Assembly (NCBI GenBank): GCA_040377305.1
Contig: JBEIPA010000013.1
Span: forward strand, 87,093 to 151,092
DNA length: 64,000 nt
Reading direction: 5' to 3'
Source: Flavobacteriales bacterium
GTDB taxonomy: Bacteria; Bacteroidota; Bacteroidia; Palsa-965
Part shown: positions 51,324 through 63,800 of the stretch, in pieces
Position numbering within the stretch: the stretch's first letter is position 1
Layout: every line of letters starts with the position of its first letter
Notes under the pieces: model-generated
Told to the model about the DNA's origin: nothing
The model's input: only the letters and a program-made list of their open reading frames with translations
The model's database searches: none
Program-made: the position numbers and the translations under genes

Positions 51324-51440
51324 GCCTCACCCCAACCCCTCTCCGGGGGAGAGGGGCTTTATTATCCTTCGGATAATTGTTTTGAGCCTCACCCCAACCC
51401 CTCTCCAAAAGAGAGGGGCTTTATTATCCTTCGGATAATT
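51324..51440. repeat. Tandem REP-like units, family F (2 copies)
   Basis: gcctcaccccaacccctctcc-nnnn-gagaggggctttattatccttcggataatt twice; third copy at 55798. Confidence 0.9.
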
Positions 51441-52987: not shown

Positions 52988-53190
52988 TTTAGTTGGTTTG
53001 ATTATTCCGTGAGAACGTGCAACGGTTCAGCGATGGAAAGGTATATATTTCGTAAGCGAAAATGGTCTGTGAAATCTTAAAACATGAAGAGAAAAGTGTG
53101 CGAAATTTCATTGTGTGATGTACATTTACGGAGTGTCGAAAAATCGCTACCGATTATCAAATCACTATTGGCTCGCTTCGCGATCGCTTT

Positions 53191-53306
53191 ACCACGGCGG
53201 CACGGCGAGCACGGCTTTTAATCTTTTGATTGGCGAGTATAAAATGAATTACATCATTCACACAGTAGGACTAAATTTATCTCCGTGCTCGCCGTGTCGC
53301 CGTGGT
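53191..53306. repeat. Inverted-repeat element E upstream of recG
   Basis: 24-bp IR with 1 mismatch, accacggcggcacggcgagcacgg / ccgtgctcgccgtgtcgccgtggt, built from cacggcg units. Confidence 0.85.
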
Positions 53307-53328
53307 GAAGCGCTGAACATCGTGAAGC

Positions 53329-55434
53329 ATGGCAGATAGTTTTCTCGAGACACCAATCGAATTTCTCAAGGGCGTAGGTCCGGAGAGAGCGACTGTGTTC
53401 AAGAAAGAGTTTGAGATTACGACGTTTGGTGATTTACTGAAATGGTATCCGTATCGACATGTTGATCGCACGAAGTTTTATGCGACGAATGAAATCAATG
53501 CAGATTTGCCATACGTGCAGTTGCGTGGACAGATTCTGAATTTTCAGATTATCGGAACCGGAAAAATTCAGCGGGCAACTGCTTATCTGAACGACGGCAA
53601 AGGAATTGTTGAGCTCGTTTGGTTTCAGGGAATCAAATGGCTGCAGGGAAAATATTTACCGGGACATGAGTACATCGTATTTGGAAAACCGGCGGTGTAT
53701 AATGGGAAGATCAACATTGCACATCCGGAAGTAGAAGAGGTGAACGAAAAAACGCTGCAGCGTACGAACGTGTTGCAGCCCATGTATTCTTCCACCGAGA
53801 AGTCGAAGCTGAAAGGATTGGACTCGAAAGGAATTCTCAAATTAACAAAAGTGCTCGTGCCGCTGATGACCGGAAAAGTTCCCGAGTTTATTCCGGAGCA
53901 GGTGATAAAGAAACTGAAAATGCTTTCGCGGGAAGAAGCGTTGAAGCAGATTCACTTTCCGGATAATCCGGCTTTGCTGAAACGTGCTGAAGCGAGAATT
54001 AAGTTCGAAGAATTTCTGATGATTCAGTTGCGTTTGCTTCGAGTGAAGAGCATGCGCAAAACAAATTTCCGCGGATTCGATTTCAGTAACGTCGGCGAGA
54101 AGTTCAACGGATTTTACAACGAGAATTTGCCGTTTCCACTGACTGGTGCACAAAAGCGTGTGATCAAGGAAATCCGTGCCGACATGGGCAGCGGAAAACA
54201 GATGAACCGTTTGTTGCAGGGCGATGTAGGCAGTGGGAAAACAGTAGTGGCGCTGATGTGTATGTTGCTCGCGAACGATAATGGATTCCAGGCTTGCTTA
54301 ATGGCACCGACGGAAATTCTGGCGAATCAGCATTTTCATTCGCTGCGCGAGTTGCTGAAAGGACTGAACGTGAAGATTGCACTGCTCACCGGAAATACGA
54401 GAGCAGCTGATCGCAGAGCCATGCATGCAGCTTTACAGGCGGGAGAACTAGATATTCTCATTGGCACACACGCGCTCATTGAAGACGAAGTGAAGTTTAA
54501 GAATCTCGGCTTTGTGGTGATTGATGAGCAACATCGTTTTGGTGTGGAGCAACGATCGAAGCTGTGGAAGAAGAATCAGAATCCTCCGCACGTGTTGGTG
54601 ATGACAGCCACGCCTATTCCGCGCACACTGGCGATGACGTTGTATGGTGATCTCGATACATCTACGATTGACGAATTACCACCGGGAAGAAAGCCGATAA
54701 AGACTGTTCACTTCGGAGATGCGCAGCGTTTGCGTGTCTTTGGTTTCATGAAAGAACAGATTGGATTGGGCAGACAGATTTACGTGGTGTATCCGCTTAT
54801 TAATGAATCGGAGAAACTCGATTACAAAGATCTCATGGATGGCTACGAAAGTATTTCACGCGCATTTCCATTGCCGGAATACAAAGTGAGTATCGTCCAC
54901 GGAAAAATGAAACCGGCAGATAAAGACTGGGAGATGCAGCGTTTCGTGAAAGGTGAAACGAACATCATGGTCGCTACAACCGTTATTGAAGTTGGTGTAA
55001 ACGTTCCCAACGCCAGTGTGATGGTAGTTGAAAGTGCAGAGCGATTTGGTCTCTCGCAATTACACCAACTGCGCGGACGAGTAGGTCGCGGTGCCGATCA
55101 AAGTTTCTGTGTGCTCATCACAGGACACAAATTGAGCAAAGACACGAAGTTGCGCATGGACACGATGGTGCGCACGAACGACGGATTTGAAATTGCAGAA
55201 GTAGATTTAAAACTACGCGGTCCGGGAGATTTAGAAGGAACGAGACAGAGTGGGTTGATGGGGTTGCGGTTGGCGGATTTGACGAAGGACCAGGCTATTT
55301 TACAACATGCACGTGGTGTAGCTGCTGAAATTATAGATAGTGATCCTACACTAGAAATGAAAGAACACGGATCATTGTTTGCAGAACTTGCACGACAAAG
55401 AGAAGGATCAGTAAACTGGGGTCGTATCAGCTGA
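53329..55434 (+). CDS. recG: ATP-dependent DNA helicase RecG
   Basis: LLQGDVGSGKT; APTEILA.QH; DEQHRFG; TATPIPR; QLRGRVGR; DLKLRGPG. Confidence 0.98.
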   Translation: MADSFLETPIEFLKGVGPERATVFKKEFEITTFGDLLKWYPYRHVDRTKFYATNEINADLPYVQLRGQILNFQIIGTGKIQRATAYLNDGKGIVELVWFQGIKWLQGKYLPGHEYIVFGKPAVYNGKINIAHPEVEEVNEKTLQRTNVLQPMYSSTEKSKLKGLDSKGILKLTKVLVPLMTGKVPEFIPEQVIKKLKMLSREEALKQIHFPDNPALLKRAEARIKFEEFLMIQLRLLRVKSMRKTNFRGFDFSNVGEKFNGFYNENLPFPLTGAQKRVIKEIRADMGSGKQMNRLLQGDVGSGKTVVALMCMLLANDNGFQACLMAPTEILANQHFHSLRELLKGLNVKIALLTGNTRAADRRAMHAALQAGELDILIGTHALIEDEVKFKNLGFVVIDEQHRFGVEQRSKLWKKNQNPPHVLVMTATPIPRTLAMTLYGDLDTSTIDELPPGRKPIKTVHFGDAQRLRVFGFMKEQIGLGRQIYVVYPLINESEKLDYKDLMDGYESISRAFPLPEYKVSIVHGKMKPADKDWEMQRFVKGETNIMVATTVIEVGVNVPNASVMVVESAERFGLSQLHQLRGRVGRGADQSFCVLITGHKLSKDTKLRMDTMVRTNDGFEIAEVDLKLRGPGDLEGTRQSGLMGLRLADLTKDQAILQHARGVAAEIIDSDPTLEMKEHGSLFAELARQREGSVNWGRIS

Positions 55435-55764
55435 GTGAAGAATGTGCCGATATGCCTATGTGCCGATTGAAAAGCGAGAGGTGTGGCGGCGGAGATAATT
55501 GATGGGGATCCGGGGTTGGAGAAGAAAGAACATGGGCCTTTGTTTGCGGAACTCGCACGACAAAGAGAGGGATCAGTAAACTGGGGTCGTATCAGCTGAG
55601 TGAAGAATGTGCCGATATGCCTATGTGCCGATTGAAAAGCGAGAGGTGTGGCGGCGGAGATAATTGATGAGGATCCGGGGTTGGAAAAGAAGGAGCATGG
55701 GCCGTTGTTTGCGGAACTAGCGAGGCAGAGAGAGGGGAGTGTGAATTGGGGGAGGATAAGTTGA
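55309..55764 (+). repeat. Three in-frame copies of the recG 3' 42 codons, 165-bp period
   Basis: 55309-55434, 55474-55599 and 55639-55764 all encode ARGVAAEIIDxDPxLExKEHGxLFAELARQREGSVNWGRIS*; identical 39-bp spacers. Confidence 0.95.
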
Positions 55765-55797
55765 GAGGGCTGGTGGTGAGGCGCTGGTGTTGATCGC

Positions 55798-55881
55798 GCC
55801 TCACCCCCAGCCCCTCTCCAAAAGAGAGGGGAGTGGTGACTTCGTCACGGGTAGGGAGAGTGGGTTTATCCTTCGGATAAT
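55798..55881. repeat. Family F REP-like unit, copy 3
   Basis: gcctcacccccagcccctctccaaaagagagggg...ttatccttcggataa. Confidence 0.85.
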
Positions 55882-55906
55882 TAAATATCGAAATTTGAAA
55901 TGCTGC

Positions 55907-56422
55907 ATGAGTCAACTTAAAATATTTGCTCTGGTTTTCTTCGTCGTGGTTGGTGCGAACGTTGCGTGTGCGCAAGACAGACTCGATACTGTTTCCTTCC
56001 ACGAAGCATTTACTGAAACGTATCCGGAGTTTATTGCTGATCATGCTGTGTGGGTTGTGAAATACAGAAAAGGATGGACGGTGCGTGATTCCTTGGGTGA
56101 GATGACGCGCGTGGAAATGGATTCTGTTTACTTCATGACAGAGAAAGTGCAAGCAACGTCGGTCTTCCTGTTTTATGAGAAGGACACCTTAATGAGCATG
56201 AATTTCTTTCTGAGTATAGCAGAAGACGAAAAGTTTATGGGGGCATTGAAGAGGGGTGCATTCGCAAGACTGGGTGGTCGAGGTAAGACGCGAAAGGTTA
56301 AGTCAGAAGGAGATTGCTATTATTATCAACGGAATCTGATTCCTGCGGATGATACGCATGTAGCGGAGTTTAGCTATAGAGTTTATACGGAGAGGCTGCG
56401 CAATAAGAACAAACAAAACTGA
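55907..56422 (+). CDS. Hypothetical exported protein
   Basis: Signal-like MSQLKIFALVFFVVVGANVACAQ; the upstream part of the ORF is repeat-derived. Confidence 0.65.
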   Translation: MSQLKIFALVFFVVVGANVACAQDRLDTVSFHEAFTETYPEFIADHAVWVVKYRKGWTVRDSLGEMTRVEMDSVYFMTEKVQATSVFLFYEKDTLMSMNFFLSIAEDEKFMGALKRGAFARLGGRGKTRKVKSEGDCYYYQRNLIPADDTHVAEFSYRVYTERLRNKNKQN

Positions 56423-56427
56423 AAAAA

Positions 56428-56883
56428 ATGAAAACCTGTTTTCTGATTGCGATTGGAATTATTCTTTCACTACGCTTGTCTGCAACGCCGGAAGCGAATG
56501 TTGATTCTTCCAGGCTGATGACGATTTACTTTACGTATGAGTGTACAGAGAATGAATGCTTCTACATTTACAATGAGAATCAATCACGGCTGCTCTATAA
56601 GAGTAAACGTGTAACACCGGGAACAACGGTGATCGACAGTTTAAAGATTATTCCCGATTCAACTATTCTTTTCGGAACCTCGCTCCGGTTTCAGATTATT
56701 CAACGAGACCTTCGGAAGAAAAGAAACAACATTTCATCCATTGCGTTTCGTGCACAATACCTGGAAGGCTATCCGTTTTTGTGGATGGATGCATTTCAAA
56801 TAGACGGGCAGTATTTCTTTTTGAGTTCGTATTCTCGGGAGCCGATGAGATTTATGACTTGTGGGACTGGTGGGGGGAAGTGA
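56428..56883 (+). CDS. Hypothetical exported protein
   Basis: Signal peptide; 5 nt after the previous gene. Confidence 0.65.
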   Translation: MKTCFLIAIGIILSLRLSATPEANVDSSRLMTIYFTYECTENECFYIYNENQSRLLYKSKRVTPGTTVIDSLKIIPDSTILFGTSLRFQIIQRDLRKKRNNISSIAFRAQYLEGYPFLWMDAFQIDGQYFFLSSYSREPMRFMTCGTGGGK

Positions 56884-56932
56884 ATGAGTACGCCTCCAAC
56901 TATCCAATGCCCTGGCAACTATTCAGCCAGTG

Positions 56933-57787
56933 TTATTTATATCCTTCCAAAAATTTCATGCAGTCTTTTTTGTCATTAAAGACAGCTTCTATCCTATCAC
57001 CAGTATTGTACTTAATGGTGATTTCGTATTTGATAACAGGCAACTTAATTTTGTCCTCCGAGTACTTTTTTAAGAAGTCAAGGGCCTCTAGTATGTTATT
57101 CAAATTGTTTTCTTGACCATGCAGAGGAACTATAATGATACGTTCAATGGATCTGGAGACTGCATTGGACAACGAATTAAAAAAAGTCTTAACTGCATTT
57201 TTATTCAATTTAATGAGGGTTTCAAGCAGCTTATTCTTGTCTGCGAAGCTCTCCCAAATTTGAATTCTCCGAGCAAATTCTGCTTCTTCGGTAGCATCAT
57301 CTGAAAAAATATCAAGGTTAAACTTCTTAAATGCAGCGACAAAGACTGCGGTAGGAAAATGTAAGATGGTAAAATTATCTGAACGTAACTGAACGAGAGA
57401 TGGTGTCGTGAAGTCTCCACCCAAAATGGCTCCTTTGAAACAAACAGTTTCGTGATGCAACTGGACTATCGGATTGATAGCCGCCTGAATTTCTTGAACT
57501 TTGTTTTTCGAATGTCGCGTTCCTCTCCTCCAAGCAGATTCAATAAATGCAACCGGAGAACCGATCTTGCTTTCTTTACCACCACGCTCAAGAACTAAGT
57601 CAAGATCATGTTTGTTTCCTTTAGCGTCTTTCCATGTAACCTTCTTACCTGGGCGAGCCTTCCTTGAACCTTTCTTGTCCAAAAAGAGTTTGTGCTTTCG
57701 AGAGAATTTTTCGAAATGTGGTAGAAGCGCTAACTCTAATAGCTCACCAATTGTCTGTCCAAATTTATGAGAAAATGATTTGCCCAT
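56933..57787 (-). CDS. Putative restriction endonuclease, PD-(D/E)xK-like
   Basis: GELLE helix, HDLDLVLE...AFIESAWRR...KNKVQE; directly downstream of the methyltransferase. Confidence 0.65.
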   Translation of the reverse strand: MGKSFSHKFGQTIGELLELALLPHFEKFSRKHKLFLDKKGSRKARPGKKVTWKDAKGNKHDLDLVLERGGKESKIGSPVAFIESAWRRGTRHSKNKVQEIQAAINPIVQLHHETVCFKGAILGGDFTTPSLVQLRSDNFTILHFPTAVFVAAFKKFNLDIFSDDATEEAEFARRIQIWESFADKNKLLETLIKLNKNAVKTFFNSLSNAVSRSIERIIIVPLHGQENNLNNILEALDFLKKYSEDKIKLPVIKYEITIKYNTGDRIEAVFNDKKDCMKFLEGYK

Positions 57788-57791
57788 GCTC

Positions 57792-59087
57792 TTAACTATT
57801 TATCCATAGTCTTCCTTCGTGCAAAGGAACAGTATGTTTTCTATTTTTCCATTTAATATTTCTGTCCCGTAGCTTTTCAAACGAGTAATCGCCAAATCCT
57901 GCGGACACGGCCAATTTCCCAAGCCATTGGTCGACAGGAACATAAATTCCATAAGGAGCAGAATCACCAATAACAAAACACATTTTGCTATTTTGATTGG
58001 TGGCCCGTCGAAGTGAATGGAATACATCAGCGAGGTCGTTAAAATATGCGGCTATCATTAGATGATAGTTTTTCTTGCCACCATGTTTCAAGCGTTCTTC
58101 TTTAAGTTTTTCAAAAACCTCTAAAAGTTCTGATTGAATAACGGATAATCTTGGATTAGACAAAATACTGTCAACACTATCTCCCAGCTTAGACACGTGT
58201 TGCGTACAAGCTCTAACTAAGTGCTTTCTGACGTGATCTTGTAAATCGGCCCACCCGCTAATGTCGCCCCAGAAAGTCATTTCCAGTCTCGTAGCATCAG
58301 CATAGTCATAGTTATTTGCATAAGGTGGAGATGTAATTACTAAGTCGCCCCAATTATCTGGTATCGATTGTATGTTTCTAGCATCTTCATTCAAGATGAT
58401 TGAATCAACTGGATTTTTGATGCGGCTCTGGGTCCGCTTCATATCTAGATACATGGCAACAACTTTGGCTTCAAAAGCCACAAACGGGTCTATGACTTTC
58501 GATTTAGTTTTGTTCGGTTGAATATATTGCCACTGGGCAGTTCCTACCGGAGAAGTTGTACGAAGTATTGAGGTAATGATGAACCAGTTGAAATTCTTGA
58601 TTTCATTTTCCTGTTTCATCTCTAACCAAGTTTGTTTGAGCGCTTCGAGTTTTTGAATTGTTTCGATAGGATAACAGCTCATTATTAGTTTCGGAAATTC
58701 AACTTTTGTTATCGTTTTGTTCTTGGCCTTTTTTAGTAAGGCGAGAGCTTCTTCTTTAAATTTCTCTGCTGGGAAATTCCAACTTAATTTGGCCTGTGCA
58801 ATTCGATAAATATATGGATGAGCTTCTACACCATATGATTCAACTCCTGCAAATTCGCTTTCAAGCAATACTGTTCCTGAGCCCGCAAAAGGGTCAATAA
58901 TTTTACTTCTGCCGTTGCTTATTTCTTTTCTAATCAATTCGCTAACCCACGCAGCAGAAAATCCTGCTGTATATCTATACCATTTGTGAATTGGCATTTT
59001 CATATTATCTGCGAAAGTCGCAGTATAATCCTGCTCAACCTTTATTTCATTCGGAAACAAGTCCAGAGTTTGTGCCTGATATGTCAT
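57792..59087 (-). CDS. DNA amino-methyltransferase (likely N4-cytosine)
   Basis: HKWYRY.AGFS; motif I IDPFAGSGT precedes motif IV VITSPPY. Confidence 0.9.
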   Translation of the reverse strand: MTYQAQTLDLFPNEIKVEQDYTATFADNMKMPIHKWYRYTAGFSAAWVSELIRKEISNGRSKIIDPFAGSGTVLLESEFAGVESYGVEAHPYIYRIAQAKLSWNFPAEKFKEEALALLKKAKNKTITKVEFPKLIMSCYPIETIQKLEALKQTWLEMKQENEIKNFNWFIITSILRTTSPVGTAQWQYIQPNKTKSKVIDPFVAFEAKVVAMYLDMKRTQSRIKNPVDSIILNEDARNIQSIPDNWGDLVITSPPYANNYDYADATRLEMTFWGDISGWADLQDHVRKHLVRACTQHVSKLGDSVDSILSNPRLSVIQSELLEVFEKLKEERLKHGGKKNYHLMIAAYFNDLADVFHSLRRATNQNSKMCFVIGDSAPYGIYVPVDQWLGKLAVSAGFGDYSFEKLRDRNIKWKNRKHTVPLHEGRLWINS

Positions 59088-59090
59088 AAT

Positions 59091-59399
59091 TCAATGTTGT
59101 TTATGCTTCTTTAAATACTTGATTTCCTCTTGTGCAGCGACCAAAATGTCTTTGACATATTTCTCCTCTACAAGTTGATAAGCCACTTGCTTACTCATGA
59201 ACTTTATAACTAGATCTTTTTCGTCGACCTTAAAAGTCTTTGCAATGATAGGCAGCATTTGTCTGCTTACTGGACGTTCTCCGCGCTCCAATTTGCTCAA
59301 CGTACTCTGATCAATGTCTAATACGGCAGCAAGTTTGCGCAACGGCATGGCTGACTCTTCTCTTAGGAGTCTAATATATTCACCTAGGTTTGTACCCAT
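59091..59399 (-). CDS. XRE-family HTH regulator (putative controller protein)
   Basis: LGEYIRLLRE...LRKLAAVLDIDQSTLSKLERGER. Confidence 0.93.
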   Translation of the reverse strand: MGTNLGEYIRLLREESAMPLRKLAAVLDIDQSTLSKLERGERPVSRQMLPIIAKTFKVDEKDLVIKFMSKQVAYQLVEEKYVKDILVAAQEEIKYLKKHKQH

Positions 59400-59414
59400 T
59401 TGGACAATAGTTTC

Positions 59415-59435
59415 TTGACAATGTTGTCAAAGTTA
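59415..59435 (-). promoter_or_regulatory. Operator-like inverted repeat overlapping a -7 promoter element
   Basis: ttgacaa-tg-ttgtcaa at 59415-59430; TAACTTTG on the minus strand at 59428-59435. Confidence 0.65.
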
Positions 59436-59516
59436 AGAAGGGCCATTGTGTCTTTCTAACTAATTAGACTTTCTTATTAACAGGTTTAGATTCTTACAGT
59501 TGTAAAATAGAATTGT

Positions 59517-59548
59517 TTATCCGTTTACAAACGTTTGTAAACGGATAA
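59517..59548. repeat. Perfect 32-bp palindrome
   Basis: ttatccgtttacaaacgtttgtaaacggataa equals its own reverse complement. Confidence 0.9.
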
Positions 59549-59557
59549 CCTTCCTGA

Positions 59558-60802
59558 TTATTGAAATTTCGTGTAAACGTTGAGAATTAACGTTTCGATG
59601 TGTGCAGCAGCTCTAAGTTCACCAATCACTAGAGAATTGGGATGTCCGCAACTATTCCTCAACTGCAAGCATTGCTCGAGTTCTTGTTTGACATTCTTGC
59701 CAATTATACCAGTACCAGCAATTATTTGAAGAAAACTATGCTCTTTCATACTTGTCAAATCATCAAACGTGTTTGCATTTTTCCATTTGGCATTGACCCG
59801 ACTAGCTTCTGCGTTAAATTGGACTAAGTGATTTTGAATTATGTGGTCATATAACAACGAAATCGCACCGACCCATGAAAGGACAACAGCTGCACGGTAG
59901 TTGGAGTTAGAATAACAACCAATAGCTTCGTCAACAAAATCTTTTGTTTGCTGATTTTGCAAGTTATTCACTTGTGCTCTAAATGCATTCGCCTTGACTT
60001 TAACTGCAGGTAGTTTTGTCGTTATACTTTCTCCAAACTCACCTTTGATGTAATCTGAAGTGACATCCGTCCCGAAATCTCGCAAAATGCTTTCGGTTAA
60101 CTGCTCTCCACCGGCACTTGCTTTTAATTTCTTGCGCAAGTCTTCTTTGGACAAACCGTTGTATTCATCAGCTACTTTGAAAATTTTAATTCGATGAAAC
60201 CCTTGCAGTCGAGTTTTAGTTCCGTCCAAGACTACCTCATATTTTCCTTCCTCATATGCCTTCTGCAATTTCTCAACTTCACTGTGATGTGCAGCAATTC
60301 GGTAGACCGGAATTTTCTTCTCTATAGTTTTGTATTTGATATAAATATTGAATTTTTGAAGAGCTATTGATGTGACTTTATTCGTTGATTCTTTGAGAGA
60401 CTTTGAGAATGCAAGGTGGGAAAGCACTATTTTGCCGTGTAAGTATCCCCACTCACCTTGAATAAAATTCTCCGTGATATCACGACCCATTTTTTGTAAG
60501 ACGCGTTCATAGTGGGTGCCTAAAAATGTATCAGGACCGGAATCCAATTTTTCGAAAGATGATTCAACGTCTTCACGATAACTATTCGAATTCGGCAGTT
60601 TGGAATTATCATAAATTCTGATCGCTCGAATCGGGCCAAACTTCATTTTAGAGCCGCGGAGAAACACTTCAGACGTTCCTTTTTTATAAGCAACAAGTAG
60701 TTTATCTAATTCTTGATCATTTAGTCCAAGTCGACACATCCATGGACTAATTACAGCATCATTCAATTGATAACATAAGTTGTATAGAGTTGTAGCTGTC
60801 AT
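59558..60802 (-). CDS. Tandem unknown-domain protein with C-terminal HEPN-like domain
   Basis: Two ~115-aa internal repeats; C-terminal EAIGCY...YRAAVVLSW and LRNSCGHP (Rx4H). Confidence 0.75.
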   Translation of the reverse strand: MTATTLYNLCYQLNDAVISPWMCRLGLNDQELDKLLVAYKKGTSEVFLRGSKMKFGPIRAIRIYDNSKLPNSNSYREDVESSFEKLDSGPDTFLGTHYERVLQKMGRDITENFIQGEWGYLHGKIVLSHLAFSKSLKESTNKVTSIALQKFNIYIKYKTIEKKIPVYRIAAHHSEVEKLQKAYEEGKYEVVLDGTKTRLQGFHRIKIFKVADEYNGLSKEDLRKKLKASAGGEQLTESILRDFGTDVTSDYIKGEFGESITTKLPAVKVKANAFRAQVNNLQNQQTKDFVDEAIGCYSNSNYRAAVVLSWVGAISLLYDHIIQNHLVQFNAEASRVNAKWKNANTFDDLTSMKEHSFLQIIAGTGIIGKNVKQELEQCLQLRNSCGHPNSLVIGELRAAAHIETLILNVYTKFQ

Positions 60803-60819
60803 GTCAAAGAAATGTGAGA

Positions 60820-63800
60820 CTATTCTAGAGGTACCCCCGCATCAAAACACCTCTTCGCCCACACCCCCATCAAACTCTCCCGCTCATACTGCGCAACAAT
60901 ACTATACAACAACGCTATCTGATCTTTCTTATAATAACTATCACTACTCGGATGATCCATCGTCTTGTACCATTGCACGCAGCCCATGAAATGATTGAAC
61001 GCAGTTGTGGCCATGGAGTCGGCGAGGATTTCGTCACCGCTCTTGTAGGCGGCGTCGGTCATGCTGATCCAGTAGTCGTCGGGAGCGATTTGCAGAGGGG
61101 GGATGTTGTTGACGCAGGTGCGGATGAGACCAGAAGCTTGTTCGTTCATTCCTGATTCGCAGAGCGCGTGCGCGGTGATGGCGCAGGAGTAACGATACGG
61201 ATCGCTGAACATGCGTTGCGTGGTTTCGTCGGCGTAAACGTCGAGATCGCTGAGGCCGCCCCAGGAGAATTTTTTCAGGAAGAGGTTGTAGGTTTTCTCG
61301 AGGTTGACCTGCGGACGCTCAACGAGATTTGCATCTTCACGCATGTTGTACGTAGGCACGAGTTTGTACGTGAGTCCTTCGAGCTGAAGAAAATTTCCGA
61401 GTCCGCCGTAACAGCTTTGCGGCATGTTCACTGCGAAATGGATCGGACGTTCCCAGTTGTTGTGCGCGAGTATGTCGAGAATGATGATCTGATCTTTGAG
61501 CAGATAACTTCCCGGAAGACTCCACATGATTTGACCGGAATCGTTATCGGCAGGAAGAATTACGGTGCGCGCAGGAATGTAATTCAACCAATCGCCGGCA
61601 ACGGTTTCGTATTGGTACTGCTTGTCGTCTGTGCTGAAAAAGTCGACCACGTTTTCGAGCAACATGGTGTCGTTACTTTCGATCATCATGTAATCGCGTG
61701 TGCCTTCGCGGTATTGCCAATGCTCCATGGCAATCGGAAGCGGATCGGAATCATATTGTTTTCTTTTCGCCTGATCGATGTGCCAATCGCTGCGGAAAAG
61801 TGAAAGACAAACAATGCGCACATCTTTGCGAACACCGAGCACTTCCTGCGCATACCAGAGCGGGAATGTATCGTTGTCGGCATAAGTGAAGAGAATTCCG
61901 TTTCGCTCACAGGACTCCAACATACTTATTGCGAGATCGCGTGCTACTGTACGGTTCGAACGGTCGTGGTCATCCCAATTTTGCACGAGTAGAAGAGTAG
62001 GAATGACGGCGCTCAACGAAACCGCCGCTGCGAGTGCAACTGTTCTTCCCAAAAGATTTTTCAGATCATAGAGGTACATAATTCCGAGACCAATCCATAT
62101 CGACCACGCGTAGAAGGAACCAACGAACGCATAATCACGTTCACGCGGTTGCCACGGCGTTTGATTGAGATAAAACACAATGGCAAGTCCGGTGAAAACA
62201 AAAAGTAATCCGGTGATGAGTGCATCGCGTTTTGAAACAGTCATGTGATAAAACATGCCTACAATGCCGAGAAGAAACGGCAACATGAAGTACACATTGT
62301 TTGCTTTGTTGTGCTGAATAGTTGGAGGCGCAAGTTCTTCGTCGCCTAATCGCCAGTTGTCGAGCGGAGCAATTCCGGATTTCCAGTTTCCTTCTGCATC
62401 GGGACCGCCTCCGGAGAAATCGTTTTGTCGCCCGGAGAAATTCCACATGAAGTAGCGGAAGTACATCCAACCCATTTGGTACGTGACGAAAAATTGCGCG
62501 TTCTGTGTGAATGTTGGAATGGTTACAGTTGTCGCAGTTCCATCTTCTTCTTCGAGTACAATTTCTTTTCCGGCACCATCGACCCAACTCTTGTAACCTT
62601 GTTCGTGTCCGGAGCTCCACATGCGCGGAAACCAAACGCACGCACGGTTGTCGTAATTCGCTACGCTGCTTTTGCGTGCGTCGCTGATCACATATTTTCC
62701 TGACTCTTCGTCTTTCGCATACACCGGACTTCCATCTACCCACGGTTCCTGTGAATCGTACGGTGTGCTGTATTGTTGTCCGTAAATCAACGGCCATGTT
62801 CCGTATTGTTCGCGATTGAGATACGACAACAAGCTTACAGGATCGCTCGGATTATTTTCGTTGATCGGTGTCCATGCATTTGCACGAATAACAATAACGA
62901 GAAAGCTGGAGTAACCCAACAGCAGCACGAGGAATGAAAGAACTGCAGTGTTGAGCCAACGGATTTTTCGCTGAGCGGAGAACCACAATCCGCCAACGAT
63001 GAGTGCGGCAACGAAAACAAAGAATACGAGAATGCCCGTGTTGAAACCGAATCCCATTTCGTTGACGAAAAACAATTCTGTTTTACCGGCGAGTTTTACA
63101 ATCCCTGGAATGAGAATGTCCTGTACACCGCCGAGTAGGAGCAATGCCAGCAAGAATGTTTTGAGTAATCCGAGTCGTGTTATTTTTTCCGTCTTGCGGA
63201 AATAATAGATAAACACGAGTGCAGGAATCGTAAGTAGATTCAGCAAGTGAACGCCGATGGAAAGTCCGATGAGAGCAGCAATGAAAACAATCCAGCGATC
63301 GCTTCGTGGATCATCTGCTTCGCCTTCCCAGCGCAACATGGCCCAGAACACCATTGCAGTGAAGAAGGAAGAGAGTGCGTATACTTCGCCTTCTACTGCA
63401 GAGAACCAGAATGAATCGGTGAATGCATACGTGAGTGATCCACACATTCCGCAGATCATGATAAGCACCATGCGTCCCTGAGAAAATTTATCGAGACGTT
63501 TGAGCACAATTTTCTTCGCGAGATGCGTGATCGTCCAGAAGAGAAACATCACTGTGCCCGCACTTGCTAACGCCGACATGCAGTTGATCCACCACGCCAC
63601 GTTTTCGTTGTTGCCCATGGAGAACAAACCGAACACGCGACCGAGAATGAGAAAGAATGGCGCACCGGGAGGATGGCCGCTTTCGAGTCCCCAGGCACAG
63701 GCGATGTACTCGCCGCAATCCCAGAAACTGGCTGTGGGCTCTAGCGTACAGATATAGACGAGACCGGAAATAAAGAATACTACCCAGCCGGACAATAGGT

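Follow-up and report, generated by a model that had tools for sequence, protein, structure and literature searches.

The DNA-repair gene recG in this Bacteroidota genome is followed by two displaced copies of its own 3' end, and the three ends probably represent recG alleles that were stacked by two rounds of homology-anchored insertion of DNA from a related strain or species.

Organization of the recG 3' end

Within the window (the whole 64,000-nt stretch of DNA that was analyzed), three 126-nt recG ends, each consisting of 41 sense codons and a TGA stop, are arranged in tandem with a 165-bp period and separated by identical 39-bp spacers with octamer units, which confirms the layout described in an initial, sequence-only reading (Table 1). 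The G-rich tract located directly 5' of the A/T-rich end is likely the native flank of recG, and the A/T-rich end with copy 1 would be the latest replacement allele. Copy 2 appears to be an earlier functional recG end and copy 3 the native one.

Table 1. Features of the recG 3' end and the adjacent region (window positions)
Feature	Position	Strand	Basis or remark
recG, 701 aa, intact	53329..55434	+	ORF list; profile matches to NCBIfam TIGR00643 and PRK10917, both above cut-off
G-rich recG tract, 12/14 third positions G	55252..55293	+	Codon table versus four relatives
A/T-rich functional recG end	55294..55434	+	Contains copy 1 proper
Copy 1 proper, in use	55309-55434	+	Third-position G 3/42
100-bp perfect direct repeat, first copy	55405..55504	+	Second copy at 55570-55669
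Spacer 1, 39 bp	55435..55473	+	Three-unit octamer array at 55443-55466
Copy 2, stranded	55474..55599	+	Composite of three segments
Spacer 2, identical to spacer 1	55600..55638	+	Octamer array at 55608-55631
Copy 3, stranded, G-rich	55639..55764	+	Third-position G 25/42, C 0
REP-like inverted pair, strong hairpin (z -4.26)	55765..55835		Immediately 3' of copy 3
Variable cargo, recG to convergent TMEM260-like gene	55910..60802		Context, outside the array

The array in spacer 1 belongs to a dispersed intergenic octamer family. Folding revealed no stable hairpin in the 39-bp spacer (z 0.44), and neither the spacer nor any of the three recG-end copies was found to be structured. The 100-bp perfect repeat comprises the end of copy 1, the spacer, and the first 31 nt of copy 2. 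There is no spacer 3' of copy 3; the REP-like pair found there represents a dispersed family of about 20 copies and matched no Rfam family at gathering score, all 13 matches in the Rfam search being far below it. The cargo includes two orphan ORFs, a putative restriction-modification trio (an unmatched ORF, an N6/N4 methylase, and an HTH protein), and one further orphan ORF. No more remnants of the recG end or the TMEM260-like end were detected from 55765 to 60819 at score 36. The copies are in frame, as originally stated, in that 165 bp equal 55 codons, but this is of little significance: an in-frame stop is present within the spacer itself, and the insert lengths of the 22 stranded-end pairs in this genome (see below) are distributed 8/6/8 across the three frames, which is the chance level.

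The three-copy array is real. In the source-run unitigs, the depth is 31 for the 100-bp repeat, 11.5 for the copy-2-specific sequence, and 15.9 and 13.5 for the flanks, and the assembly graph contains the array loop. This run may be the source sample itself, so it argues against misassembly but is not independent. An assembly chimera of co-occurring strains, compatible with an array spanned by this one run only, as unitigs, and with the somewhat shallower copy-2 unitig, is very improbable: the depth of the repeat unitig is double that of the flanks, both ends of the copy-2 unitig connect to the repeat, copies 2 and 3 are not entered from any other recG body, no competing recG end was found in the source-run unitigs at 88% likeness, and the layout recurs in independently assembled genomes. 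The A/T-rich end is also present in a run from a second study, with 4 differences in 209 nt; in a single depth-3 contig of that second strain, the spacer behind copy 1 has a variant start. Coverage in the second run, at a depth of 3, is limited to copy 1, and the missing coverage over copies 2 and 3 was not taken as evidence.

Divergence of the three copies

Copies 1 and 3 differ at 43 nt and in 32 of the 42 codons but in only 4 of the 41 residues, with 28 of 36 synonymous codons respelled. In a simulation, 43 random changes altered a mean of 25 residues and a minimum of 16 (20,000 trials). Both copies thus evolved as working code, in accord with the earlier proposal that copy 3 was once functional. 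The respelling goes in opposite directions, as seen from the third-position G counts (Table 1). It spans 47 codons, leaves no common run longer than 8 nt, exceeds that in all 10 species pairs with at most 4 residue differences (0.24 to 0.54), and is slightly beyond saturation (p = 0.037). Adenines of copy 1 hold 20 of the 43 differences and T, C, or G hold 23; given this distribution, the synonymous nature of the differences, and no RT-like ORF in the window (ORF list inspected by eye), a diversity-generating retroelement was rejected.

At the peptide level, the three ends are identical except for residues 671, 674, 677, and 682, none of them in conserved columns, which speaks against the suggestion of a useful reservoir of spare ends. 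A kept set of silent cassettes that vary the RecG C terminus by recombination is extremely improbable: swapping could proceed through the direct repeats, and excision of prophage e14 is described as swapping the icd ends (PMC13626634), but the differences are limited to these four residues, the array is unique among 224 genomes, and variant joints were not found in the source run.

Copy 2 begins at the same base as copy 3 and differs from it in 16 synonymous codons and one residue. Its nt 1 to 31 are those of copy 3, nt 32 to 84 are nearest to G015, the closest relative, and nt 85 to 126 are one base from copy 1. Its description as a chimera holds for the 5' part, similar to copy 3, and the 3' part, similar to copy 1, but not for three sites that match neither; all three are synonymous third positions, and two match G015. 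The middle of copy 2 thus keeps ancestral bases lost from copies 1 and 3, so that the array records two insertions and no fewer than three alleles that were once functional. These bases do not support amplification through unequal crossing-over between copies 1 and 3 in the form proposed.

The same ancestral states, missing from both neighbors, count against an origin in which slippage at the repeat duplicated the end locally, with unusually rapid mutation of the region and selection on whichever copy is in use thereafter. Such a process would account for the 100-bp perfect repeat as a recent event, for several near-identical pairs elsewhere in the genome, and for the base composition near repeats, where gene tails are G-up and C-down and gene starts after octamer arrays show the mirror bias. 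However, it gives a stranded copy no reason to keep its peptide, as seen between copies 2 and 3, and leaves copy 3 with no spacer behind it; we consider it improbable.

Comparison with the recG ends of relatives

The recG ends of relatives indicate which copy is ancestral. Among the informative synonymous codons, 17 match G015 in copy 3 and 4 do so in copy 1, so copy 1 is the newcomer, in agreement with the gene-end replacement that the sequence-only reading had proposed. The distances to G015 are 21 nt for copy 3, 27 nt for copy 2, and 40 nt for copy 1, and the last 42 nt of copy 3 are 4 bases from G015. By segment, copy 2 has 2/10/15 differences and copy 3 has 2/15/4; a sequence combining the front of the former with the back of the latter would have 16, below any real copy, a comparison based on 6 sites versus 1. 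The match between copy 3 and G015 might be partly convergent, as both are G-rich and gene tails are G-rich genome-wide.

No better match to copy 1, as a donor, was found among 29 evaluable genome loci; the 15 pattern hits in viral contigs included none related to the recG end, and the 80 distant recG loci from a metagenome scan included none closer than G015. The idea of a cassette family targeting recG was not borne out, as no extra recG end was detected in the 223 other genomes of the class (224 in all). Of the 108 recG loci for which 300 nt or more of downstream sequence was available, only the one here and that of G019 have a stranded end; a score-46 match at locus L085 was judged to be due to chance. 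The stranded recG end in G019 starts 22 codons later than the one here, and a 7-mer array lies behind the gene. A recG end at an unrelated site in G019 is nearest to that of G017 (3 residues, versus 8 for its own gene). G015 has a single recG end and encodes the same putative restriction-modification genes, and the gap between recG and the TMEM260-like gene varies among relatives and contains no integrase.

Stranded ends of other genes

A census of 3,536 ORFs identified 24 rows with a stranded end, or 22 after one paralogue pair was dropped (about 0.6% of the genes), and 0 in the internal-window control. Duplicated ends are thus found in 21 other genes of this genome, as well as in genes of four relatives from the same genus (G007, G013, G015, and G019), as the check proposed in the sequence-only reading called for. 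Compared with control genomes (3/1,295), the 22/3,536 found here do not constitute a significant excess (p = 0.11). The inserts are heterogeneous in length (30 to 3,515 bp, most of those at other genes being <1 kb) and in content, including ParE/RelB pairs, an IS200/RAYT-like gene, several repeat families, or nothing recognizable. The duplicated parts comprise 12 to 42 codons (36 to 126 nt) and have variable boundaries. In the 21 other pairs, synonymous differences are fewer in the 5' halves (44/151) than in the 3' halves (64/151, p = 0.022), as predicted by a shared crossover block. When ten other genes were compared with relatives, the stranded copy was clearly native only for asd (8 versus 2), the remaining ones being mostly ties or leaning to the working copy. 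In about six of the 22 pairs, the two copies are nearly the same and might have arisen by simple duplication in place.

A flavoprotein gene in G015 has a stack of four ends, each followed by an octamer array, with boundaries that differ within the stack and 6-nt microhomology at one junction. One of its stranded ends differs at 11/54 nt from the working end in this genome and at 15/54 nt from G015's own, and the array downstream of it scores 39 against the array here and 29 against G015's own. Both being closer to this genome, the end and its neighbor travel together, a pattern for which the G017-like recG end in G019 is a further example. In G000, G007, and G013, the end of one orthologous gene has a toxin-antitoxin cassette, behind which each of these genomes has a host-like stranded end. 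Contig C6 contains a 15-kb island associated with a duplicated gene end. Of the 10 rows for N termini, most were due to wrong starts or internal repeats, and two were accepted (hemC and C17:52759). The rule that working copies are G-poor and stranded ones G-rich failed in the 21 pairs (Wilcoxon p = 0.98), and the G-rich tract 5' of the duplicated part is a tendency only (0.32 versus 0.25 in gene bodies).

Octamer arrays are associated with stranded ends but are not required, since the inserts also come from other repeat families, from toxin-antitoxin pairs, or from nothing recognizable. The link to the octamer family proposed earlier therefore holds in part: arrays are over-represented behind stranded-end genes (3/24 versus 75/3,536, p = 0.013) and accompany the four-unit stack in G015, but most stranded ends have other inserts or no scored repeat, with 19 of the 22 having no octamer array within 150 bp. 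The scan used detected no stranded end at about 99 intergenic arrays. For any repeat family, the numbers are 7/24 versus 188/3,536 (p = 1.7e-4), a value inflated because some families were defined after the inserts had been seen. An octamer array also separates the duplicated hemC start, and inverted octamer arrays bracket a gene of the TIGR02436 four-helix-bundle family (C7:50729-51242), one of nine such genes in the genome. This family is not known to have catalytic activity. A repeat-armed TIGR02436 cassette at recG was rejected: the recG array has a single repeat arm and no four-helix-bundle gene. Inverted arms with the same octamer were seen at the C7 locus.

These arrays raise the tentative possibility, which we consider unlikely, of a dedicated miniature mobile element, in which an octamer array, as the arm of a four-helix-bundle cassette, and a carried respelled end would be inserted at gene ends by a trans-acting protein and stack like tandem islands at tRNA genes. 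Such an element would fit the octamer associations just listed, the 7-mer array behind recG of G019, the shared start base of copies 2 and 3, the sharp beginning of the A/T-rich end 3' of the G-rich tract, and the variant spacer start in the second strain. Set against it are the many stranded ends that lack arrays and arrays that lack stranded ends, variation in the duplicated lengths and in the boundaries (the latter also among the units of the G015 stack), the absence of additional recG ends from the 223 other class genomes, and the lack of known catalysis in the four-helix-bundle family.

Proposed mechanism

Under homology-anchored insertion, the explanation preferred here, imported DNA with its own recG end and a repeat behind it would have recombined into the resident end, displacing the older one. 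In the first round, a small circle of a recG end and the 39-bp spacer may have entered by a single crossover near nt 82 to 85 of the resident end, with copy 2 becoming the working end and copy 3 the displaced piece, so that both reciprocal products would be preserved. In the second round, the incoming strain would have already had copy 1, the spacer, and a G-rich stranded start, and out-of-register pairing via the shared block could have added copy 1 in front. No dedicated integrase would be needed, the conserved gene end itself being the recombination anchor, and the survivors would be only those products that encode a whole RecG C terminus. The extreme C terminus of E. coli RecG is described as vital for unwinding (PMC4027168).

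Plain import from a relative does not account for the excess of respelling between copies 1 and 3. The strong respelling in opposite directions likely combines the local G-ward bias at gene ends near insertion sites measured here with a candidate second factor, better survival of direct repeats that have diverged too far to be lost again by recombination. Of the 7 tyrosine recombinases and 1 large serine recombinase in the genome, none is encoded on contig C11, which contains recG, and no circle or empty site of the recG-end and spacer unit was observed. The comEC gene is present but is also found in 10 of 14 control genomes and is therefore uninformative on competence.

Comparison with known systems

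Tandem islands at the ends of tRNA and tmRNA genes and SCC elements at rlmH likewise stack displaced 3' fragments by serial insertion. However, they have short fixed cores and a cognate integrase, whereas the recG-type ends are 36 to 126 nt long, with variable boundaries and no enzyme nearby. In Allomyces atp6, in fungal mitochondria, a mobile endonuclease ORF brings a foreign, respelled C terminus and the native end is displaced, as in the recG array; unlike there, the recG insert has no endonuclease gene, and its respelling is longer than a nuclease site. A homing endonuclease cassette was also rejected: the 39-bp insert contains no endonuclease, and the putative restriction-modification genes, located on the far side of copy 3, occur in G015 as well, with its single recG end.

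The icd gene of E. coli is a site of phage 21 as well as of prophage e14. In the latter case, an alternative, largely synonymous C terminus restores the gene, the other end is stranded downstream (icdC fragment), and recombination between the two ends swaps them (PMC13626634). The recG gene is similarly intact with copy 1, and its native end is displaced downstream. Unlike the 15-kb e14 with its site-specific system, recG has a 39-bp repeat, no recombinase, and three alleles, and many unrelated genes show the layout. No integrase was found between the ends (39-bp inserts) or nearby on contig C11. With regard to a short identical core at the 5' edge, the first 31 nt are common to copies 2 and 3, the longest run common to copies 1 and 3 is 8 nt, no reuse was seen in the 223 other class genomes, and the stranded end of G019 has a start 22 codons further on.

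The array could also be the remnant of a classical integrative element of the e14 type, a phage or island that supplied copy 1, lost almost all of its cargo, with the integrase, by deletion, and was then duplicated. Such an origin would fit the layout shared with icd/e14/icdC (PMC13626634), the A/T richness of copy 1, common in mobile DNA, and the 15-kb island on C6. Its probability is low, given that the contig has no integrase, no viral relative was found, an element targeting recG is absent from the 224 class genomes and 108 recG loci bar one short-cargo case, copies 1 and 3 have no identical run longer than 8 nt, and most other inserts are <1 kb.

A parallel to homology-anchored insertion is provided by homology-facilitated illegitimate recombination (HFIR) and by single-crossover rescue of circularized DNA, which involve one homologous anchor, one short-homology joint, and no integrase; in E. 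coli, circularized incoming linear DNA and one crossover gave 109- to 950-bp lacZ-end duplications (PMC3240628). Those events took place in the laboratory, where the markers were selected and the homology was identical, and no natural stacked, respelled alleles are reported there. In HFIR proper, about 1 kb of resident DNA is usually lost. The stranded ends described here show a shared block at the crossover side, as seen in the 5' halves of the other pairs and the 31-nt block of copies 2 and 3. Of the 3- to 10-bp microhomology expected at the other joint, one 6-nt case was seen, in the G015 stack. Hotspots with no mobile elements turn over via recombination at flanking core genes (PMC5635113), and the recG region resembles this 2017 model in its gap that varies among relatives, its lack of an integrase, and its flanking core genes as anchors. 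In the model, however, a double crossover replaces the gap and leaves no stranded gene end. A literature search found no earlier description of the recG layout; subscription journals or supplements could hold one.

Implications

A more speculative and rather unlikely view is that a gene end together with a short repeat forms a protein-less mobile entity, in which the repeat arms (octamer arrays and REP-like hairpins) would trigger breaks or circles at gene ends, the respelled last codons of hosts would be carried between strains and stacked, and a strand-asymmetric signature, a G-rich host flank and an A/T-rich carried end, would be written. If true, this would be a general integrase-free route for tiny repeats and toxin-antitoxin cassettes into conserved gene ends and would tie an orphan four-helix-bundle family to DNA mobility.

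RecG itself gains no new function, and an end swap would change no more than four residues, which are not conserved. Phages, islands, and homing endonucleases are known to replace gene ends, each by means of an enzyme of its own. In this genome, replacement involves a cargo of 39 bp and two events at a single gene, and the layout is seen in about 0.6% of genes. The stack, with three alleles of one gene end placed in order of time, offers a test case for hotspot formation and G-rich tails. These observations suggest that small repeats and cassettes can spread by nothing more than ordinary recombination at conserved gene ends.

The recG array

Two stranded ends, that is, extra copies of a gene end lying beyond the working gene and behind an insert, follow the recG end in use (copy 1). 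Between copies 1 and 3, 43 nt and 32 of the 42 codons are changed, yet only 4 residues; random change at this level would be expected to alter ∼25 residues. All three ends formerly functioned as coding sequence, in agreement with what the sequence-only reading had proposed for copies 1 and 3.

The array is genuine and documents gene-end replacement that happened more than once. In the unitig graph of the probable source run it is present as a loop without a competing path, which makes an assembly chimera very improbable. Unitig depths were 31 for the 100-bp repeat, 11.5 for copy 2, and 15.9 and 13.5 for the flanks; the sample is probably that of the assembly, so these values are not independent of it, and they do not fix the per-cell copy number. 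A single depth-3 contig in a run from another study carries copy 1, differing at 4 of 209 nt, and continues into a variant form of the spacer start. By its gene content, the genome is placed in Bacteroidota.

A hairpin family represented by a 30-bp inverted repeat pair upstream of recG also makes up the inserts at two stranded ends, those of asd and an ABC ATPase. The REP-like element seen after copy 3 recurs in tandem at two sites, and six copies of it bracket one ORF on contig C50. A putative type II restriction-modification trio (an unmatched 284-aa ORF, an N6/N4 methylase, and an HTH protein) also lies directly behind recG in the closest relative, G015, and is missing there in more distant relatives.

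Positions of the recG array and other features (plain numbers, window; otherwise genome:contig:position, G000 being the genome under study)
Feature	Position	Details
recG	53329-55434	701 aa; family scan
recG end, copy 1	55309-55434	end in use
recG end, copy 2	55474-55599	126 nt, behind 39-bp spacer with three octamer units
recG end, copy 3	55639-55764	126 nt, behind an identical copy of that spacer
G-rich tract in recG	55252-55293	G at 12/14 third positions
Hairpin-family repeat pair	53185-53312	
REP-like tandem copies	51324-51440	
REP-like tandem copies	G000:C50:226479-227837	
Restriction-modification trio	56933-59399 (-)	
TMEM260-like gene tail	60820-60945 (-)	third positions: G 21/42, C 0
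hemC stranded 5' end (L149)	G000:C7:17960-18100	
Four-helix-bundle gene (L202)	G000:C7:50729-51242	
Signalling paralogues	G000:C10:67029, C26:239, C11:77323, C50:66	
Low-homology island	G000:C6:61351-76764	15 kb
Flavoprotein end stack (L165)	G015:C246	
Isolated recG end (L031)	G019:C71:480-640 (-)	

Age of the three ends

G015 (89% RecG identity) has a single recG end, from which copies 3, 2, and 1 differ at 21, 27, and 40 nt, respectively. At the informative synonymous codons it agrees with copy 3 at 17 and with copy 1 at 4, bearing out the earlier proposal of gene-end replacement; more distant relatives do not discriminate between these two copies. Copy 3 is thus quite probably the old end and copy 1 the newcomer. 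Part of the resemblance between copy 3 and G015 may be convergent, because gene tails in this genome are generally G-rich, more so beside repeats.

Copy 2 is identical to copy 3 over nt 1-31 and lies 1 base from copy 1 over nt 85-126. Between them (nt 32-84), it shares six sites with G015 against copy 3, the reverse holding at one site, and two of its three private sites, all synonymous, match G015. Copy 2 was therefore not built from the present copies 1 and 3, contrary to the simple unequal crossover first suggested. The front of copy 2 joined to the back of copy 3 is 16 nt from G015, closer than any actual copy; this fits, suggestively only, an incoming circle that recombined with a resident end by one crossover near nt 82-85. 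In a second event, copy 1 would have been added in front, with the spacer junction reused. That event is recent, as marked by the 100-bp perfect repeat.

Base composition and respelling

Copy 3 has G at 25 of 42 third positions and no C, a G-richness matched in only 9 of 2,979 gene tails and in none of 2,022 internal windows. Copy 1 has 3 of 42, and 33 of the 2,979 tails are as G-poor. The working recG switches abruptly from a G-rich tract to this A/T-rich end. The tail of the convergent TMEM260-like gene, pointing into the same variable region, is similarly G-rich. Throughout G000, G becomes commoner and C scarcer at third positions along the last 30 codons of genes (G is 0.29 in the last ten codons versus 0.22). 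The trend is stronger where repeat elements adjoin and where the next gene is convergent or distant. Starts of genes that follow octamer arrays are biased in mirror fashion, with C up (p = 5.5e-4). The whole pattern is strand-asymmetric and has intergenic insertion sites at its centre.

Between copies 1 and 3, 28 of 36 degenerate codons are respelled, compared with 124 of 286 between the G000 and G015 recG gene bodies (p = 2.8e-5) and with 22.7 expected from independent draws on genome codon usage (p = 0.037). Among the species pairs whose recG tails differ by no more than 4 residues (10 of 231, three including the unpublished genome G012), the respelled fraction is 0.24 to 0.54, rising to 0.8-0.9 in more distant pairs. 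Plain import from a relative is therefore not a full explanation of copy 1. Candidate explanations are the survival of poorly recombining repeats and opposite local mutation biases; local duplication plus fast mutation, by which the copies would have diverged in place, is improbable.

Stranded ends elsewhere in the genome

When the last 41 residues encoded by each of 3,536 ORFs were compared, without gaps, with the 4 kb downstream, 24 stranded-type rows resulted, or 22 once one paralogue pair is removed, about six near-identical pairs and one or two possible decayed paralogues being retained in the count. The internal-window control gave 0 rows and the gene-start version 10, of which 2 were accepted. 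Hosts include asd, an RsmF methylase, mltG, an HI0933 flavoprotein, a Mur ligase, and hemC. In hemC, which mirrors recG, a respelled 5' end is stranded, with an octamer array between it and the working start. Stranded ends also occur at all four of a set of paralogous signalling proteins that share a C-terminal motif; at three of them the inserts are related, which suggests movement between paralogues. In the 21 non-recG pairs, the 5' half diverged less than the 3' half (p = 0.022).

The proposed link to the octamer family held in part: arrays lie behind 3 of 24 stranded-end genes versus 75 of 3,536 genes (p = 0.013), but inserts (30 to 3,515 bp) are of several other kinds, containing several repeat families, ParE/RelB pairs, a Y1/RAYT-like gene, or orphans. 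A dedicated repeat-armed mini-element using a trans factor, to which the enrichment would point, is rather unlikely. G000 has 102 intergenic octamer arrays and nine four-helix-bundle (TIGR02436) genes, with such a gene between inverted octamer arrays at L202, where the octamer is that of the recG spacers, and at L203. A low-homology island on contig C6 lies between copies of a 45-codon gene end; it encodes TIR-like proteins and sensors but lacks a tyrosine recombinase.

Proposed mechanism and known systems

On balance, we favour homology-based recombination anchored in the gene end, with no dedicated enzyme, because inserts are varied, boundaries variable, and 5' blocks shared, alleles move with their neighbours, and no enzyme lies nearby. 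In E. coli, incoming DNA with a gene end was circularised and a single crossover duplicated 109-950 bp of the end, HFIR joints having 3-10-bp microhomology (PMC3240628); hotspots without mobile elements are described as having more recombination at flanking core genes (PMC5635113). E. coli RecG requires its extreme C-terminus (PMC4027168). That need would favour the survival of products restoring the recG end; by analogy, selection for a restored end would act in Bacteroidota RecG, whose tail differs in sequence from that of E. coli. In the recG tail alignment, R and W are invariant and I-S near-invariant, which backs the analogy. The swapping-in of spare ends raised by the sequence-only reading is not supported as a useful function, and a reservoir for variation of the RecG end is scarcely credible.

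Systems for comparison include phage 21, SCC at rlmH, tandem islands at tRNA genes, and the Allomyces atp6 element. The array resembles in its working icd/e14/icdC, where synonymous ends are swapped on excision (PMC13626634), but it lacks an integrase and hence does not belong to that class. A remnant of an integrative element is likewise improbable; the recombinases of G000 (7 tyrosine and 1 large serine) are all on contigs other than C11, which carries the array. The array also does not fit a homing-endonuclease cassette or a diversity-generating retroelement. The literature searched, which covers few subscription journals, yielded no description of enzyme-less stacked gene ends. Gene-end replacement itself is already known, and the array is a variant form of it.

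Stranded ends in relatives

For ten G000 stranded-end genes, five relatives provided 46 ortholog loci, 41 of them checkable for a stranded C-terminus. Four had one: the G015 flavoprotein (three extra ends), a toxin-antitoxin site in G007 and G013, and, weakly, G015 mltG. The stranded copy was clearly native at asd only (8 versus 2), the others being tied or favouring the working copy, so polarity is shown for recG and asd only. Four ends are stacked at the G015 flavoprotein, with an octamer array after every one, and one of the four is a different allele. One end, together with its array, is closer to the G000 working allele than to G015's own. The end of the flavoprotein gene is likewise duplicated in G035 and G226 and gave more than one match in 9 of 192 genomes, three confirmed as stranded.

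A profile of 65 recG ends matched 224 of 251 class genomes, with more than one match in G000 only; in G019, outside this draw, 773 bp of cargo and a 7-mer array separate recG from a 20-codon stranded copy of its end. Unpublished G114 and G190 enter the recG and flavoprotein tallies once each. G019 also carries, at an unrelated locus on another contig, an isolated, foreign-looking recG end of ∼50 codons with a frameshift, closest to recG of G017 and possibly a binning error.

Among 1,295 ORFs sampled from other genomes, 3 rows were obtained, the G000 excess being nonsignificant (p = 0.11). The stranded-end layout is thus a low-rate, widespread trait, of which the three stacked ends at recG are a rare instance.
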